A stretch of 13,336 nucleotides of DNA from a virus (lineage: Duplodnaviria > Heunggongvirae > Uroviricota > Caudoviricetes), in IMG/VR virus record IMGVR_UViG_2751185957_000009, one strand, 5' to 3'. Positions 2,601 through 13,336 of this stretch are shown piece after piece (position 1 is the first letter of the stretch; every line of letters begins with the position of its first letter). The notes under the pieces are model-generated. The model saw only the letters and a list, made by a program, of their open reading frames with translations. It did no database searches and was not told where the DNA came from. A program made the translations under genes and the position numbers.

Positions 2601-3014
2601 CTTGGGATTTTTCACGAGAGTAGTTTAATTGAGCGTGTAACTTCATGATTTAAAATAATGTATATGATTCAACTTTTAAACCGTATAACCAAACGTATAA
2701 CTAAAATGATTTGCTGAAAAAATGCACAATTCAGGGTCGGATTTTCCCGGATGTTTAATTTATAAAAACGAAGCTGGTGGATGATCTGCGTGGTGATTTC
2801 CACCATTCAGAGCAGGGGCGGTCATCATGCCCATGCCATAACAAAAACCCCATATTCGTGGTTTTTCTGTGTTGTGGCTATTCTGCCGTTGCCGTGCTGG
2901 TGGATATTTCCGTTATGGGGATCACCATATCGGCATCATGCCCACCAGCCAGCGCAATTTTGCGCTTTGCTTTAAGTTCAGCAAGTTACCGCGCCGGATT
3001 ACGCCAATGGCTGT

Positions 3015-3194
3015 TTCCGAAAGAATCAACGGGTTAGGCCTTAATGGGCTGCGTGGTAATTATCAGCATCCAGAATATGACGGGTTATGTTTCCGACCTC
3101 CTCAATTTGAGGTTCCCGAAAATATCAACGGGTTAGGCTGGTTTCCCCGATGTTCGCCGCTGGCGAATTTCGAAAATATCAACCAGTTACCGCC
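3015..3194. repeat. Four direct repeats of an ~18-bp motif (AA(A/G)AAT(A/C)TCAACGGGTTAGG-like) with ~50-bp period
   Basis: Copies centred near 3024, 3073 (degenerate), 3119 and 3174. Largely non-coding; the last copy overlaps the 3' end of ORF 3187-3468. Confidence 0.5.
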
Positions 3195-3468
3195 GCAACC
3201 GCTCCGGCTTCTTCCAGTGGTATGTAATTTTCTCCGTTTCCCGATACAGTGCCACGCGGCGATTGTAGGCCAGCATTTCAAGAACGCGGATCCGTATGTT
3301 GCGCATATCCACATCATTAAGCTGGATACCATCACGGCGCATCACCTCAGCAACAACACGCGCATAATTTTCGGCTGTCACGCTGTCCGGCTGCGTGGCC
3401 TGTTCGTCAGTCTGCTGGCTGATTCCACCAGCACGGCGGATTAATCCCAGTATTTCGGCTTCTGTCAT
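3187..3468 (-). CDS. Hypothetical protein (93 aa) at the distal end of the satellite
   Basis: ORF with ATG preceded by AGGTG; non-repetitive, charged/helical composition. No family recognised. Confidence 0.45.
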   Translation of the reverse strand: MTEAEILGLIRRAGGISQQTDEQATQPDSVTAENYARVVAEVMRRDGIQLNDVDMRNIRIRVLEMLAYNRRVALYRETEKITYHWKKPERLRR

Positions 3469-3501
3469 TGTGCACCTATCGTTCTGATTGTCTGGTGTCG
3501 T

Positions 3502-3684
3502 CGGGTCCTTCCTGGAATTATGGACCCGTTACGGGGCGGCGACCTCGCGCGTTTTCACTATTTATGAAAATTTTTCGGGATCCATGTCCGGTTTCTCTAC
3601 AAGTTAACCATATGAAAAATATAAAAACATGCTTTCCATGAACCGGACATGCGCAAAAAACAGACACTAAAACCGGACATCGAA
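3502..3684 (+). other. Lambda-type cos site copy 1: cosN core plus cosB-like array of three AACCGGACAT sites around an AT-rich segment
   Basis: 3531-3578 (ACGGGGCGGCGACCTCGCGCGTTTTCACTATTTATGAAAATTTTTCGG) is near-identical to the lambda left end as I recall it (GGGCGGCGACCTCGCGGGTTTTCGCTATTTATGAAAATTTTCCGG); the 12-nt cohesive-end sequence GGGCGGCGACCT is at 3534-3545. AACCGGACAT occurs at 3641-3650 and 3671-3680 and inverted at 3584-3593. Confidence 0.75.
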
Positions 3685-3748
3685 CCAGTTAACCGAAAGT
3701 GTGCACAAATCACATGCATTGCTGCGAGTGATTAACAAGTTATCGGCT

Positions 3749-4183
3749 TTACTGTTCTGTATCGGCTGATTGCTCCATGCTGGCACGGCGAACGCTTACG
3801 GCATGACGCCACCCAGCCAGAAAGCCAGCCATTTTATTTCGTGCCTTGCTCACATCTTCCGGTGAATAGCCGTAAATCTGCAAACCTTCATCAAATCGAT
3901 GTTCTGTTTCTTCACTGGAGTACTCGTCACGCTCAGATGAAAGCAGCCTGGCAAACATAATTTTTTCCAGCGCACTGGTTTCTACGTGATATCTGATGGC
4001 CTCAAGACGGCTTTTACCTGAAGACCAAAGCAATGTATGCCCGATGTGATAACCGCCAGACTTTCCGCGATCCGCATTAAGATACGGCATCCCCTGTTTG
4101 GTCCATGCGCGAATAGTGGTTCTGTTAACCTTGAAATGTTCAGCTATTTCCTGCTGACTTACAAAACAAGCTTTATCAATCAT
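3749..4183 (-). CDS. Nu1-like small terminase subunit / packaging-specificity protein (144 aa, shorter than lambda gpNu1)
   Basis: The N-terminus (DKACFVSQQEIAEHFKVNRTTIRAWTKQGMPY) parallels the lambda gpNu1 winged-HTH region (NKKQLADIFGASIRTIQNWQEQGMPV). AAGGT Shine-Dalgarno 6 nt before the ATG. Lies between two cosN copies. Confidence 0.7.
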   Translation of the reverse strand: MIDKACFVSQQEIAEHFKVNRTTIRAWTKQGMPYLNADRGKSGGYHIGHTLLWSSGKSRLEAIRYHVETSALEKIMFARLLSSERDEYSSEETEHRFDEGLQIYGYSPEDVSKARNKMAGFLAGWRHAVSVRRASMEQSADTEQ

Positions 4184-4251
4184 AATGTTACCTTAACTGC
4201 ATGGTTAAATATTAATCAAGTGGTGGTGGTGTCACCTTCACGGAAAAACGT

Positions 4252-4316
4252 CATAAATAGCGAAAACCCGCGAGGTCGCCGCCCCGTAACGGGCCATAAT
4301 TCCAGGAAGGACCCGC
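4252..4316 (-). other. Lambda-type cosN copy 2, inverted relative to copy 1, upstream of the Nu1-like gene
   Basis: Reverse complement of 4252-4316 (GGGTCCTTCCTGGAATTATGGCCCGTTACGGGGCGGCGACCTCGCGGGTTTTCGCTATTTATGA) matches copy 1 over ~70 bp and matches lambda cosN including GGGCGGCGACCT (4274-4285 on the minus strand). No AACCGGACAT sites follow it. Confidence 0.75.
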
Positions 4317-4338
4317 AAAAAAGCCGGATTTCTCCGGC
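4317..4338 (-). terminator. Rho-independent terminator ending the capsid operon
   Basis: On the minus strand: GCCGGA-GAAA-TCCGGC followed by TTTTTT, 7 nt after the stop at 4345. Confidence 0.7.
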
Positions 4339-4344
4339 CTTGTC

Positions 4345-4758
4345 TCAGATGGTTTTCAGTATGCGATCGATGTCGCCGTCATCGCCTGGGTTTCTGCCAT
4401 CGTATGCCATGCCAGCTGATACGGTTTGTGGGCTGTGCATGTCCATAAAGTTTTCAAAGGCTGCGGTAAGCTCTGGTGCAACCTTCGGGCGTTCCTGCTC
4501 TATGGTCATGTTCAGGATGTTTTTAGCCGTATCAACATCGATACAAGGCACGTTTGCCATTGCACGCAACAGCGGCTGATAGTCTTTATGCTCATGAAGC
4601 GCCATAATCGCATCAGCGCGCGGCTTGTCCTGCTCTTCCAGTTTGTTGAGTTGATATACGGCCTCGTAGGTTGATAAACCTCTGTCAGCCATTGCCCGCG
4701 CTTCGGCTTTAAATTTACTCGCCAGCGGTAGCGCCATGATGCTTTCATTCGTTGCCAT
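4345..4758 (-). CDS. Hypothetical protein (137 aa), last gene of the capsid operon
   Basis: ORF with GGGGGA Shine-Dalgarno, starts 12 nt after the D-like stop. Acidic C-terminus. No family recognised. Confidence 0.55.
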   Translation of the reverse strand: MATNESIMALPLASKFKAEARAMADRGLSTYEAVYQLNKLEEQDKPRADAIMALHEHKDYQPLLRAMANVPCIDVDTAKNILNMTIEQERPKVAPELTAAFENFMDMHSPQTVSAGMAYDGRNPGDDGDIDRILKTI

Positions 4759-4770
4759 CGTTCCCCCTGC

Positions 4771-5106
4771 TTATCGGGCCAGCGGCTGAACGGATACGCC
4801 AGAACCCGCAAAGGCGGCGCATTTTTTCGCATCGGTGTCGACGCTCTCAGGCCAGTTAACGGCGGCAATATTGAATATCCCCGTCTTGTAACACTGTGCT
4901 GATTTCTGCTTTGACGTGTCCACGAGGTACGAAGTCAGATAAACAGCCTTGCCAGATTCCTGACCATCCCACGGCTTAAACTCGCCATTGTCCACCAGCA
5001 TCAGCGGGGTAAATTCCTGAATAACGCCAGCATCAGCGGCAAAATGTACCAGTGTCGTTGATACCTGCTGACTGCCTGCAAATAACTCAATATATGGAGT
5101 GTCCAT
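4771..5106 (-). CDS. Head decoration protein, lambda gpD homolog (111 aa)
   Basis: Similarity to lambda gpD as recalled: TPLMLVDNGEFKPWDG vs TPLMLDTSSRKLVAWDG; CYKTGIFNIAAVNWPESVDTDAKKCAAFAGSGVSV vs [35 protein letters not shown]. Same length class. GGGGGA Shine-Dalgarno. Confidence 0.85.
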   Translation of the reverse strand: MDTPYIELFAGSQQVSTTLVHFAADAGVIQEFTPLMLVDNGEFKPWDGQESGKAVYLTSYLVDTSKQKSAQCYKTGIFNIAAVNWPESVDTDAKKCAAFAGSGVSVQPLAR

Positions 5107-5117
5107 ATAATCCCCCG

Positions 5118-6173
5118 TTAACCAATTTTGACGGTAACAAATTTGCGAATATCTGCCGGAACCGGCTGCGGTGCGCTGTGTGTCTGCACGTACTCAATCG
5201 CCGGATCGCCGTCCTCAATCCAGTTTTTCGGGTAGTACATGTTTTGCGTTGCGCCCGTTCTTACCGCTTCCTGATCCATAATCGCACCATAGGCCACCAG
5301 CCCTTTATTGTTGGTGTTGCCCAGGACCAGCAAATCAGGCTCAAGGAAATATTTTTCGGTGCCGTCGCTGTCAGTGTATTTGCCGGAATAGACAATAAGA
5401 GCAATATCGCCCAGATAGCCTTTAAAGCTCACCACTTCGCCCAGGTTTTTACAGGCCATTTCTGCGGCGGATTCTGAACCACGGGAAAGATCGTACAGTT
5501 CACGGAATTTTTTAAAGCTGCGTAACGTGCGCCATACCTCAGCGCCCATAATCATGACGTTGGCGGGGCAACCTGCCTGATCTGCGTATAGTTCGATGTC
5601 ATAGATTGGATCGTAAATATCTTTATCATGCTCGGACCATTTTTTGCCGTCGGACTGCTCTATGATGTTTTTTTCCGGTATCTTCCAGTCGATTTCATAG
5701 CGTTCTATGCCTTCGCCCTCAATGATGTTTTTTCCGGTCGTTACCGCATTCACCGCCAGCCATTCCACGCGTGCCTTAATGGCGTTTATCTGGCGGCGCA
5801 TGTTGCCAGTAATCAGGCGCATACGGCGATAGGTAGGGTCGTTAAGCTGTGCCGGATCTTCTCCAGCCATGCGCATGATGGTTTTCGTTGGATCGATTTC
5901 GTGCTTTGGCTTCATGTAGCCAGGTTTGATTGTGCTGGTTTCGTACCCTTTATCGCGCTGAACCTGGCTACCCACCATAGGCGAACAAAACGCCGACATG
6001 GTGACTTCTTCAATGTCCAGGGTATCCAGCATGATGTTTTGCGTGCTGAATGTCGCCACGTTCGGGAAAAACAGCGTGGTAAACAGAGGGCTGAATTTAA
6101 AATCCGCAATATCCCCGCGATTCAGGTACATAAAAAGCTGGTTAGTGTTAAGTGCCGTTGCTTTGCCTGCCAT
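5118..6173 (-). CDS. Major capsid protein, lambda gpE homolog (351 aa)
   Basis: Conserved blocks shared with lambda gpE along the whole length: DFKFSPLFTTLFF, IKPGYMKPKHEIDP, GEDPAQLNDPTYRRMRLI, VSFKGYLGDIALIVYSG, YPKNWIEDGDPAIEY. Roughly 45-50% identity by eye. Confidence 0.9.
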   Translation of the reverse strand: MAGKATALNTNQLFMYLNRGDIADFKFSPLFTTLFFPNVATFSTQNIMLDTLDIEEVTMSAFCSPMVGSQVQRDKGYETSTIKPGYMKPKHEIDPTKTIMRMAGEDPAQLNDPTYRRMRLITGNMRRQINAIKARVEWLAVNAVTTGKNIIEGEGIERYEIDWKIPEKNIIEQSDGKKWSEHDKDIYDPIYDIELYADQAGCPANVMIMGAEVWRTLRSFKKFRELYDLSRGSESAAEMACKNLGEVVSFKGYLGDIALIVYSGKYTDSDGTEKYFLEPDLLVLGNTNNKGLVAYGAIMDQEAVRTGATQNMYYPKNWIEDGDPAIEYVQTHSAPQPVPADIRKFVTVKIG

Positions 6174-6854: not shown

Positions 6855-6950
6855 TGTTTTTTTCCTCTGTTGTGTCTGTTTGTTTCAGATAGTAACTATG
6901 CCTGACCGTGACGAAAACCCGGTAATGCGCCATACCGTTTCAACTGGTGC

Positions 6951-6972
6951 AAAAAAGCCGGATTTCTCCGGC
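6951..6972 (-). terminator. Rho-independent terminator after the PerC-like gene
   Basis: AAAAAA-GCCGGA-TTTC-TCCGGC, reading hairpin then T6 on the minus strand, 8 nt after the stop at 6980. Same module as 4317-4338. Confidence 0.7.
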
Positions 6973-6979
6973 TGTTTGA

Positions 6980-7252
6980 TTAGCTGTCCTGGTAATTGCG
7001 CCATATTTCATCACCAGCACCATCTATACCCATTTCGGCATAAGTGCGATCGACTGCCTTTTTCAGGTCTCCGAAATTATCCGGCGGCTCCGGTGCCCTC
7101 TGTGCCTTCCTTGAACATTCCAGCCGTCGCATCGTGATGTGATGCCGTTCCTTGTCTGTCTCCACCAGCTGCATGACTTCACCCCATCGCGCCGCCGCCC
7201 TCCGGTAAAAGCCTTTCGCCTCCAGTTCCTCCGCTATGCGGTCATGTACCAT
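6980..7252 (-). CDS. PerC-family transcriptional regulator homolog (about 90 aa; an upstream in-frame start at 7372 is possible)
   Basis: Motif IAEELEAKGFYRRAAARWGEVM matches the PerC-family signature as I recall it (AExLExxGxWRRAAxRW). The ATG at 7252 is preceded by GAGGGGG and lies 11 nt after the SSB stop. Family assignment from memory. Confidence 0.6.
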   Translation of the reverse strand: MVHDRIAEELEAKGFYRRAAARWGEVMQLVETDKERHHITMRRLECSRKAQRAPEPPDNFGDLKKAVDRTYAEMGIDGAGDEIWRNYQDS

Positions 7253-12094: not shown

Positions 12095-13336
12095 CTACAC
12101 GGCTCGGATACCCCTTTTACCACTGGCGAGGGTTACGCCCGTCGCCGCAGCCTCGACAAATTCGCCCCACCAGCGCATCAGCACGATGCGTTTTTCTATG
12201 TAGTTGCTCCGGTTGTATGCCCGTCTAACTTCGTTGGTGTCGACGTGGGCAAGTGCCGCCTCTATTACGTCCGGCTCGAATCCTTCCTCGTTCGCTGCTG
12301 TGCTGAATATGGCGCGTAATCCATGAGACACCAGCACGCCAGCGAATCCCATACGCCGCAATGCTGCGTTAGCTGTCTGGCTGTTCATCGGCTGCTGTGG
12401 GTCTTTCAGACTTGGGAAAACGTAATTGCGGTGGTGGCTGATTGGTTTCATGGCCTCCAGCACCGCCATAGCCTGACCGGAAAGCGGGATAACGTGATCC
12501 CTGCGCATCTTCATGCGTCCGGCAGGTATCGTCCATTGCTTCGCGTCCAGGTTGATTTCATCCCACCGCGTTGATGACGCTTCGGCGGGACGGGTTACGG
12601 TCAGTAACTGCCATTCAATCAGTAATCTGGTCTGCCGTTCTGTTGCCGATACTGATAAAGCCTGCATAAGCTCCGGCAGCTGTTCGGGGCGGATTGTTGG
12701 CATATGTTTTTTTACAGGTGAGGGAAACGCCTTACGCACATTCATAGCCGGATTGGCATCAATCAGCCCACTGTTGGCGGCGTAATCCATTACCTCATTA
12801 ACGCGCTGTAAAACCCGCTTGAGTGTTTCCAGGTTGCCGCGCTCCTTGATGGGTGTAAGCACTTCAACGAACCTTCGGGCGGTGAGGGTATCTATTGGCG
12901 TGTTGCCGATGAACGGGAATACATATTTATCCAGCGAACGCCAGATGTCTTTAATCGTGTTGGGGGCCAGATTCTGGCTGATTTTCACCTGGTACCATGC
13001 CGCCGCCACATTTTCGAACGTGTTCCCTTGTCTTCGGGCCTCTGCCTCTCGTTTTTTCTTCTCATGGCCCTGCGGGTCAGTTCCGGCACTGATTAACGCT
13101 CTGTACTCGCTACGGCGTTTTCTGGCATCAGCCAGGGAAACATCATCAAGCGATCCAAAACTCAGCAATATTCTTTTTTTGTCCGATGGCCGGTAGTAGG
13201 AAAATCGCCAGAGTTTTGATCCGGACGGTTTGACCAGGAGAAAAAGCCCTCCGCCGTCCTGTAGGGTGTATTCCTTTTCCGCTGGTCTGGCTGCTTTGAT
13301 CTGCACCGTGGTTAATGGGGGTGTTTTTCTCGCCAT
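12095..13336 (-). CDS. int: P4-type tyrosine integrase (413 aa)
   Basis: N-terminal arm-binding domain typical of P4-like integrases (LTTVQIKAARPAEKEYTLQDGGGLFLLVKPSGSKLWRFSYY), C-terminal catalytic region with HGLR and the tyrosine in RRAYNRSNY. Start codon is the last three bases of the window. Confidence 0.9.
   Translation of the reverse strand: MARKTPPLTTVQIKAARPAEKEYTLQDGGGLFLLVKPSGSKLWRFSYYRPSDKKRILLSFGSLDDVSLADARKRRSEYRALISAGTDPQGHEKKKREAEARRQGNTFENVAAAWYQVKISQNLAPNTIKDIWRSLDKYVFPFIGNTPIDTLTARRFVEVLTPIKERGNLETLKRVLQRVNEVMDYAANSGLIDANPAMNVRKAFPSPVKKHMPTIRPEQLPELMQALSVSATERQTRLLIEWQLLTVTRPAEASSTRWDEINLDAKQWTIPAGRMKMRRDHVIPLSGQAMAVLEAMKPISHHRNYVFPSLKDPQQPMNSQTANAALRRMGFAGVLVSHGLRAIFSTAANEEGFEPDVIEAALAHVDTNEVRRAYNRSNYIEKRIVLMRWWGEFVEAAATGVTLASGKRGIRAV

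Follow-up and report, generated by a model that had tools for sequence, protein, structure and literature searches.

The island and its two cos sites

The DNA analysed here, called the window, is the whole stretch of 13,336 nucleotides of a viral record (IMG/VR, IMGVR_UViG_2751185957_000009), and we studied in it a group of short repeats lying beside a lambda-type cohesive-end site (cosN). The window is a phage-inducible chromosomal island (PICI) of the EcCICFT073 family, with two complete cos sites that are inverted to each other and flank rppA, the gene of a redirecting phage packaging protein (Rpp). We found in it the features that define this family: an integrase, a replication gene (an open reading frame, ORF, of 466 aa, counted as the primase-type gene), an rpp gene, two cos sites and genes that run in one direction, while a full set of phage morphogenesis genes is absent. 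There are also genes similar to those of lambda gpE and gpD (Pfam Phage_cap_E, 3e-51, and HDPD, 6e-17). The ORFs of 144 aa and 93 aa are on the minus strand, like the other island genes, and the chromosomal autotransporter gene yejO adjoins the island. The genes follow each other as they do in CFT073 and AST198. Over the cosB region (window 3570-3725) the identity with CFT073, which has the same arrangement of rppA and inverted cos sites, is 99.4%.

Regarding the 144-aa protein, it is RppA. Over the first 50 residues it does not differ from the published RppA, R21 and T22 included, it matches RppC in the PDB (6hlk, E=5e-31), and its N-terminus matches the family phrog_57 of terminase small subunits (TerS).

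Both the cos2 site and the Rpp paradigm have already been published. According to the sequences of Fig S1A and the primers of Table S5 in PMC6739421, the published cos2 falls on window 3500-3720 (plus strand), and the published cos1 is the rppA-proximal site of the minus strand, whose cosB, from around 4243 to 4103, reaches into the 5' end of rppA. The EcCICFT073 cos2 of Fillol-Salom et al. (2018, 2019) is the same element as the cos2 of the window, and the cos2 'cosB' of PMC6739421 is exactly the interval of the repeats. The repeats are found past the 3' end of rppA, beside the cosN of cos2, and not between a cosN and the start of rpp. There is another exact cosN at 4273-4284 (minus strand), within an inverted repeat of around 80 bp (3502-3580 and 4238-4315, 88-96% complementary) whose arms enclose both the 144-aa gene and the repeats. 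All the coordinates are collected in Table 1.

Three repeats in the position of a cosB

The motif AACCGGACAT has three exact copies in the window, at 3584-3593 (-), 3641-3650 (+) and 3671-3680 (+), and no further copy was found in the 13.3 kb even when one mismatch was allowed. The direct copies are spaced by 30 bp, and the inverted copy lies 57 bp upstream, with an AT-rich stretch between it and the first direct copy. To the left of the repeats, the cohesive-end sequence of lambda, GGGCGGCGACCT, is present without any change. A preliminary description of the window, made from the sequence alone, had reported two direct copies and one inverted copy around an AT-rich stretch, next to a nearly lambda-identical cosN, and in this it was right; actually, it had missed the second cosN. 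Among 20,000 dinucleotide-preserving shuffles of the 203-bp interval from cosN to rppA, only 22 contained any 10-mer three times, and therefore the repeats are real and not a chance event.

We scanned 3400-4400 for promoters and terminators. In the repeat region this gave no promoter-like sites and nothing more than a weak 5-bp hairpin overlapping the first box, so that a role of the repeats as operator or terminator is unsupported.

The interval had also been described as a cosB, that is, a binding region of TerS, with a recognition sequence other than that of lambda. The position of the first box, the spacer and the inverted second box support this. The further claim, that the R3-I1-R2-R1 layout of lambda is mirrored here, holds approximately: the first box at bp 49-65 from the cohesive end, the AT-rich spacer and the inverted second box agree with it, but the third copy is oriented opposite to the R1 of lambda, pointing like R2, which is itself inverted relative to R3.

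Compared with lambda and phage 21, the boxes of cos2 lie to the right of an identical cosN and an identical I2. The R3 of lambda occupies bp 49-64, close to the bp 49-65 of the first box of cos2, the second box is inverted in both, and the cores of R3 and R2 are 57 bp apart in cos2 and 61 bp apart in lambda. With phage 21 the boxes share the 5' ATGTC half of the R boxes (CATGTCGG); the phage 21 record M81255 annotates R3 as CGTGTCGGTACTT, R2 as CATGTCGGACCTT (reverse complement) and R1 as CATGTCGGGCCTT. However, the recognition sequence of cos2 is CATGTCCGGTTT, unlike that of either phage.

Phage origin of the cos2 cosB

The segment from cosQ to the third repeat (3501-3680) is 92% identical to the phages PhiR12_1, PhiR12_2, PhiR12_2_star, PhiR12_4 and PhiR12_5, and the likeness is that of a complete cos, extending from cosQ to the last box with the specificity part included. 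In these phages the segment stands immediately 5' of a gene for a 169-aa Nu1/TerS protein, followed by terL. The same cosB is found directly 5' of terS in a prophage of O157:H7, and again in the potB prophage of CFT073 (prophage 2) with the same TerS accession, WP_000235436. The icd prophage of CFT073 (phage 4) was considered as the place of this second CFT073 match and rejected, because its cosB is identical to that of phage 21 and has no AACCGGACAT.

This type of cosB is common. Window 3570-3680 was matched in 1,185 of the 5,426 complete E. coli genomes, so the phage class of the cos2 type occurs in about one fifth of them, O157:H7 and CFT073 included. Furthermore, 264 IMG/VR contigs encode a TerS of the PhiR12 class, and the best 80 of them were examined for upstream motifs. 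Counted from the start of terS, nearly all of these 80 have the motif at around -145, -88 and -58, which is the 57/30-bp spacing of the window; one contig lacks the upstream part, and in a few others a copy is substituted or deleted.

In the parent phages the R1 element, unlike that of lambda and phage 21, is a palindrome of two overlapping boxes, AAACCGGACATGACCGGTTTT, whose rightward half, CATGACCGGTTTT, is the positional R1. The homology between island and phages breaks off abruptly after ...CCGGACAT at 3680. What follows the cosB also differs: terS in the phages and prophages, and the 3' end of the convergent rppA in the island.

Distinct cos sequences were aligned, 36 from phages and 8 from islands. 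The first box, CCATGTCCGGTTTCTCT, is unchanged in all of them. Among the phages, CCATGTCCGGTTTCTCT, the AT-rich spacer, GAACCGGACATG and AA(A/G)CCGGACATGACCGGTTTTGTTG are invariant or nearly so, whereas the intervening spacers vary. Variable columns in the phages amounted to 3 of 30 in the boxes versus 22 of 70 elsewhere (Fisher p=0.025), and none of the 13 variable columns of the islands fell within the boxes (P=0.007; 8 distinct sequences), both being modest values, and the variants are haplotype blocks and not independent events. The cosB of the window differs from that of one phage subvariant at around 2 per 100 positions, and the haplotypes of the cos2 cosB in the islands mirror those of the phages, which implies a continuing exchange between islands and phages.

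We also looked at the genomes carrying the island. A second match of the cosB query was present in 44 of the 60 island-bearing genomes listed, versus around 21% of the other genomes; this second match was confirmed as a prophage in CFT073 only and the genomes are phylogenetically non-independent, so we count this co-occurrence as weak support.

A putative fourth specificity of lambda-type cosB

Three lambda-like specificities have been documented, namely lambda, 21 and N15/Monarch (Feiss and colleagues, PMC4669245). The TerS of the PhiR12 phages aligns with the Nu1 of lambda at the C-terminal part only (34% overall identity), and Pfam Phage_Nu1 covers its residues 49-150. Its N-terminal 48 residues or so are unlike those of lambda Nu1, phage 21 gp1 and N15 gp1, and with N15 gp1 only residues 59-164 align. 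PHROGs places the whole 169-aa protein in the TerS family phrog_57, and a sequence search of the PDB with it gave no significant hit.

The R boxes are CGTTTCC in lambda, CATGTCGG in 21, GGTTGTTGTTT in N15 and CATGTCCGGTTT in the PhiR12 class, and across these four classes the R-box sequence co-varies with the DNA-binding domain of TerS. Because of this co-variation, the TerS of the PhiR12 class would be the protein that reads the AACCGGACAT boxes. Like N15/Monarch, this class combines a lambda-like cosQ/cosN architecture with its own TerS DNA-binding domain and its own R sequence. Nevertheless, the R3 of N15, at bp 48-60, is unrelated and the two TerS proteins align over their C-terminal two-thirds only, so we ruled out that the PhiR12 class simply has the N15/Monarch specificity. 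The sequences thus point to a fourth lambda-like cosB/TerS specificity.

RppA acts at the other cos site

The preliminary description had proposed that the AACCGGACAT repeats replace the R sites of lambda and that the Nu1-like protein of the island redirects the terminase of the helper. In this model the repeats are the R sites of the island itself, and RppA, alone or with the TerS of the helper, would bind them. It is true that the winged helix-turn-helix of RppA is TerS-like with other recognition residues, and that the repeats are placed where R sites belong relative to cosN. However, the published experiments with plasmids, swaps, chimeras and deletions all tie RppA to cos1, which is on the other side of rppA. 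RppA boosts the transfer of cos1 plasmids only, the exchange of cosB regions gave transfer with RppA from the cosB of cos1 only, and a phi80 chimera with the cosB of cos1 becomes RppA-dependent. In addition, the deletion of cos1 strongly lowers the transfer by lambda and phi80, whereas the deletion of cos2 raises it (PMC6092414).

The proposed site of Rpp tells the same. Murialdo and Feiss (2022, PMC9026076) put it (R3-PICI) at bp 48-65 of cos1, as AGGTGACACCACCACCAC, which is unrelated in sequence to the repeats; at bp 48-65 cos2 has TCCATGTCCGGTTTCTCT, and R3-PICI is not present in cos2. The same authors called the cosB of cos1 simple and N15-like and never mentioned cos2. Moreover, the ownership of the repeats by the island is unsupported: the same boxes with the same spacing are native to phages and prophages that encode no Rpp, directly before their own terS, and islands without rpp keep them. 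For the helpers lambda and phi80 the proposal is therefore largely refuted, and in general we regard it as highly improbable. The redirection by Rpp is real and known, but it belongs to cos1; having seen a single cos site, the preliminary description attributed the known mechanism to the wrong one of the two.

Both cosB regions are specificity determinants of the one island, each with a lambda-type cosN to its left. Unlike that of cos2, the cosB of cos1 is simple and N15-like, without I1, R2 or R1, it is upstream of rppA and co-oriented with it, and it has been shown to respond to RppA. In the window, we found no phage homolog of the cosB of cos1 beyond I2.

Sister islands

A scan of contigs for relatives of RppA found none, and therefore the diversity of the islands was sampled from complete E. 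coli genomes.

The DLL557 island carries between its inverted cos sites a full-length TerS of 180 aa, with an N-terminal domain like that of N15 gp1. Its cos1 has an N15-like R3, GGTTTTGTTGTTTG. The cos2 of this island has homology over its length with the cosB of phage PhiR5_1 and of lambda, its R3 being 21-like and its R2 and R1 lambda-like.

The islands of B771, LH50-c, STEC2018-607, ST130 and SCU-172 have no rpp. They contain two phage-type cos and no specificity protein, and of rppA only a rearranged piece of the 3' end is left in their interior of 539 bp. One of the cos has the AACCGGACAT cosB, with the boxes intact, and the other has GGTTGTTGTTTAAT at bp 50-63, an N15-type R3 in the N15 position. 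In B771 and LH50-c both inverted copies of cosN share a G-to-T change (GGGCGTCGACCT), which indicates a concerted change or an exchange between the arms.

Thus, the cos2 position in this island family holds a phage-type cosB whose class differs between the lineages.

Inversion of the rppA cassette

The segment between the two cosN sites is found in both orientations in natural genomes. A synthetic query in which 3581-4237 was reversed matched end to end in 15 genomes. With 261-bp queries specific for the junctions, the orientation of the window and CFT073 was found in 41 genomes and the flipped one in 15; the latter have an identical junction and may be one lineage. The counts of 1-kb queries at 80% coverage or more were discarded for the orientation, since the inverted arms let the opposite orientation reach around 81%. 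In the strain WP4-S17-ESBL-08, whose island shares with CFT073 the phoQ site and the RppA and 93-aa proteins, rppA is antisense to all other island genes. Both orientations also occur in the variant without rpp, and at least two independent inversion events are likely.

On comparing the arms, the cosQ side stays with the flank and the I2 side moves with its cosB, which places the crossover at CCCGTTACGGGGCGGCGACCTCGCG, that is, at cosN itself. Such an inversion may be produced by homologous recombination in the short shared core. Alternatively, terminase might cut both sites, and the interior fragment, with two identical 5' overhangs, might re-anneal either way. The inversion keeps each cosN with its own cosB, reverses the packaging direction of each cos and sets rppA antisense to the island operon. 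Natural inversion jointed at cosN suggests that cos sites can serve as recombination points.

Two sigma-70-like promoter matches were found within the cosB of cos1 (window 4179-4235, minus strand), just 5' of the rppA start. They lie inside the invertible cassette, so rppA could be expressed in either orientation.

Interpretation of cos2

Our preferred reading, to which we give a probability of around 0.6, is that cos2 is a copied helper-phage cos of the fourth lambda-like specificity, which the TerS of that class would read directly. The AACCGGACAT motifs would be the R boxes of a complex cosB of the lambda style (R3, an I1-like spacer, an inverted R2 and half of the palindromic R1), and the cassette cosQ-cosN-I2-R3-I1-R2-half R1 (3501-3680) would have been copied from the lambdoid class to which the PhiR12 phages, the O157:H7 prophages and CFT073 prophage 2 belong. 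The TerS of this class would bind the boxes and position the terminase large subunit (TerL) at the cosN of cos2, and the island concatemer would be packaged rightwards (plus strand) from one cos2 to the next without Rpp. The complex of RppA with a TerS of the lambda, phi80 or 21 type would use cos1 on the other strand. An island-specific cos together with a helper-mimicking one would give a wider helper range. The boxes have the homology, position, conservation, co-variation and phage context described above, and in the published work they give no response to RppA; from this we infer the binding by PhiR12-class TerS and a productive packaging from cos2.

The helpers of the published cos2 experiments were lambda and phi80, with a lambda-type cosB, and CFT073 phage 4 (phi4), of the 21 type, and therefore the cognate PhiR12 class was absent from them. 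Fillol-Salom et al. (2018, 2019), who compared the cosB of cos2 with those of lambda, phi80 and phi4, called it 'completely divergent' from phage cosB, and they left open the reason for two cos sites. None of the 8 distinct island sequences has any of the three boxes altered, and their retention despite the gain in lambda and phi80 transfer on cos2 deletion suggests a benefit in another context.

Mimicry of the helper cos has been described for SaPIbov5 and 11capE, which carry a near-identical copy of it including the specificity region and can thus be packaged by the unmodified terminase of the helper; the helper-embedded satellite 11capE shares 258 bp at 90% identity with the cos of its helper. 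The cos2 cosB would be a case both of lambda-type cosB and of this mimicry. Unlike in those satellites, the putative mimic of the window is the second of two cos sites, and it is inverted relative to the Rpp-dependent one.

Several observations weigh against this reading. In the I1-equivalent no match to the consensus of integration host factor (IHF), WATCAANNNNTTR, was found within one mismatch, and consequently IHF bending there is suggested by position and AT-richness only. Because the homology to the phages stops at 3680, the island keeps the leftward half of R1 and lacks CATGACCGGTTTT, a half that hardly varies among the phages. As stated above, the statistics of conservation are modest. 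In the Ch1 island the cohesive end of cos2, GGGAGTCGAACC, has four changes from lambda, with the cosN of cos1 and the three R boxes intact, which may be either a decay of cos2 or an adaptation to another cohesive end. Finally, in CFT073 the deletion of prophage 4 abolished the transfer of the island and the deletion of the other prophages had no effect, so that prophage 2, with the cognate TerS, is there neither necessary nor sufficient. Prophage 2 is around 36 kb from the island, has one substitution each in R2 (GAACCGGGCATG) and in the third box (AAGCCGGACATG), and carries an IS200 insertion; perhaps it is defective, or it cannot induce alpA.

A serious rival, although we think it unlikely, is that cos2 is not adaptive and comes from recombination between island and prophage at the shared cosQ-cosN core, being a recent or near-neutral relic, perhaps slightly costly, with no role in transfer. 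The identity of 92-98% to phage cos and the mirrored haplotypes, which imply ongoing exchange, fit with this, as do the better transfer by lambda and phi80 once cos2 is deleted, the degenerate cosN of Ch1, the missing half of R1 and the failure of CFT073 prophage 2 to mobilise the island. On the other hand, the limits of the homology are those of a functional cos unit, from cosQ to the last box, and the boxes are intact in all 8 distinct sequences of islands while the spacers and the downstream island DNA vary. Besides, a costly site is expected to be lost, and a phage-type cosB of different classes at the same position in three island lineages argues for repeated selection.

We consider it improbable that cos2 is a decoy, which would bind PhiR12-class TerS or unredirected terminase for non-productive cutting or packaging, to the harm of the phage and without moving the island, or that it is mainly a partner for the inversion of rppA. 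PICIs are known to interfere with helper packaging, and initiation at an unpaired prophage cos gives dead particles (Feiss and colleagues, PMC4669245). However, in a concatemer cos2 recurs in the same orientation one island length apart, and packaging should terminate normally. As for a partner in inversion, the two inverted cos, the crossover at cosN and the two orientations in nature are in favour, but there is no evidence of an inversion phenotype.

Going beyond the copied helper cos, the whole segment is possibly, and here we speak tentatively, a dual-specificity invertible cassette, in which cos1 would be used via RppA-TerS, cos2 via the PhiR12 class (CATGTCCGGTTT, 169-aa TerS), and flipping would occur by breakage and rejoining at cosN. 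If true, it answers the question, left open in the published work, why two cos sites are found in some PICIs, and helpers that Rpp cannot hijack would package the island directly via cos2.

In the literature searched we found no account of the R boxes of cos2, of its identity with the native cosB of a fourth class, of the parallel in the sister islands or of the inversion at cosN. A full-text search for the motif gave unrelated primer hits only, and PICI, cos site and inversion together gave nothing. Having defined candidate R boxes is useful for studies of terminase recognition and for predicting which prophages can mobilise virulence-carrying islands.

Table 1. Coordinates of the cos sites, the rppA cassette and other features (window positions unless another stretch is named)
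Feature	Position	Strand	Remarks
cosQ of cos2 (GGGTCCT)	3503..3509	+	read from sequence; conserved with lambda, phage 21 and PhiR12 phages
cosN of cos2, GGGCGGCGACCT	3534..3545	+	exact match; same as published EcCICFT073 cos2
I2-equivalent, CTATTTATGAAAATT	3558..3572	+	identical to IHF site I2 annotated in phage 21 record M81255
R3-type box, CCATGTCCGGTTTCTCT, holding the inverted AACCGGACAT copy	3582..3598	+	bp 49-65 from cohesive end
AT-rich I1-equivalent spacer, 38 bp	3599..3636		putative IHF bend; conserved between phages and islands
R2-type box, TGAACCGGACATGC on plus strand	3639..3652	-	inverted relative to R3; nearly invariant in phages
Third box, AAAACCGGACATCG	3669..3682	-	phage counterpart is the left half of the palindromic R1 element AAACCGGACATGACCGGTTTT
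Island-specific spacer	3681..3748		from the end of phage homology to the rppA stop codon
rppA, 144 aa	3749..4183	-	TerS-like; matches in the text
cosB of cos1	4103..4243	-	RppA-responsive in experiments; mapped from phi80-chimera primers, Table S5 (PMC6739421)
Proposed R3-PICI of cos1, AGGTGACACCACCACCAC	4237-4220	-	bp 48-65 of cos1; proposal of Murialdo and Feiss
cosN of cos1	4273..4284	-	exact match; published mapping
cosQ of cos1	4308..4314	-	read from sequence
Segment between the inverted cosN sites (cosB of cos2, rppA, cosB of cos1)	3546..4272		both orientations in natural genomes
P4-type integrase	12095-13336	-	window feature
TerS region of DLL557 and adjoining segment	6326-6868 and 6870-7044 of the DLL557 stretch
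cosB region of CFT073 prophage 2 (potB)	38480-38760 of the CFT073 stretch
Changed cohesive end of cos2 in Ch1, GGGAGTCGAACC	around 860-885 of the Ch1 stretch

Other features of the window

A direct repeat of 27 nt (GTTyCCGAAArAATCAACGGGTTAGGC) occurs three times near the island end, at 3013-3039, 3112-3138 and 3166-3192, just downstream of the 93-aa ORF and slightly overlapping it. Each copy includes a perfect IHF consensus, WATCAANNNNTTR. These repeats may be an arm of the attachment site or IHF sites, or else iterons.

Three minus-strand genes at 4345-4758, 4771-5106 and 5118-6173 encode homologues of the lambda gpE-like major capsid protein and the gpD-like decoration protein, together with a protein of 137 aa. 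Residues 45-119 of the latter match the C-terminal part of the head maturation protease family phrog_53, and the protein may be scaffold-like. The 2018 paper described the island as having no capsid morphogenesis genes; according to a later preprint, capsid genes are common in Gram-negative PICIs.

At the other end of the window, a C-terminal fragment of an IS3-family transposase (19-285) abuts the yejO autotransporter ORF of 746 aa (270-2510). In the strain AST198 yejO spans 2,592 bp, so that the insertion sequence remnant seems to have cut off the 5' end of the chromosomal yejO beside the island.

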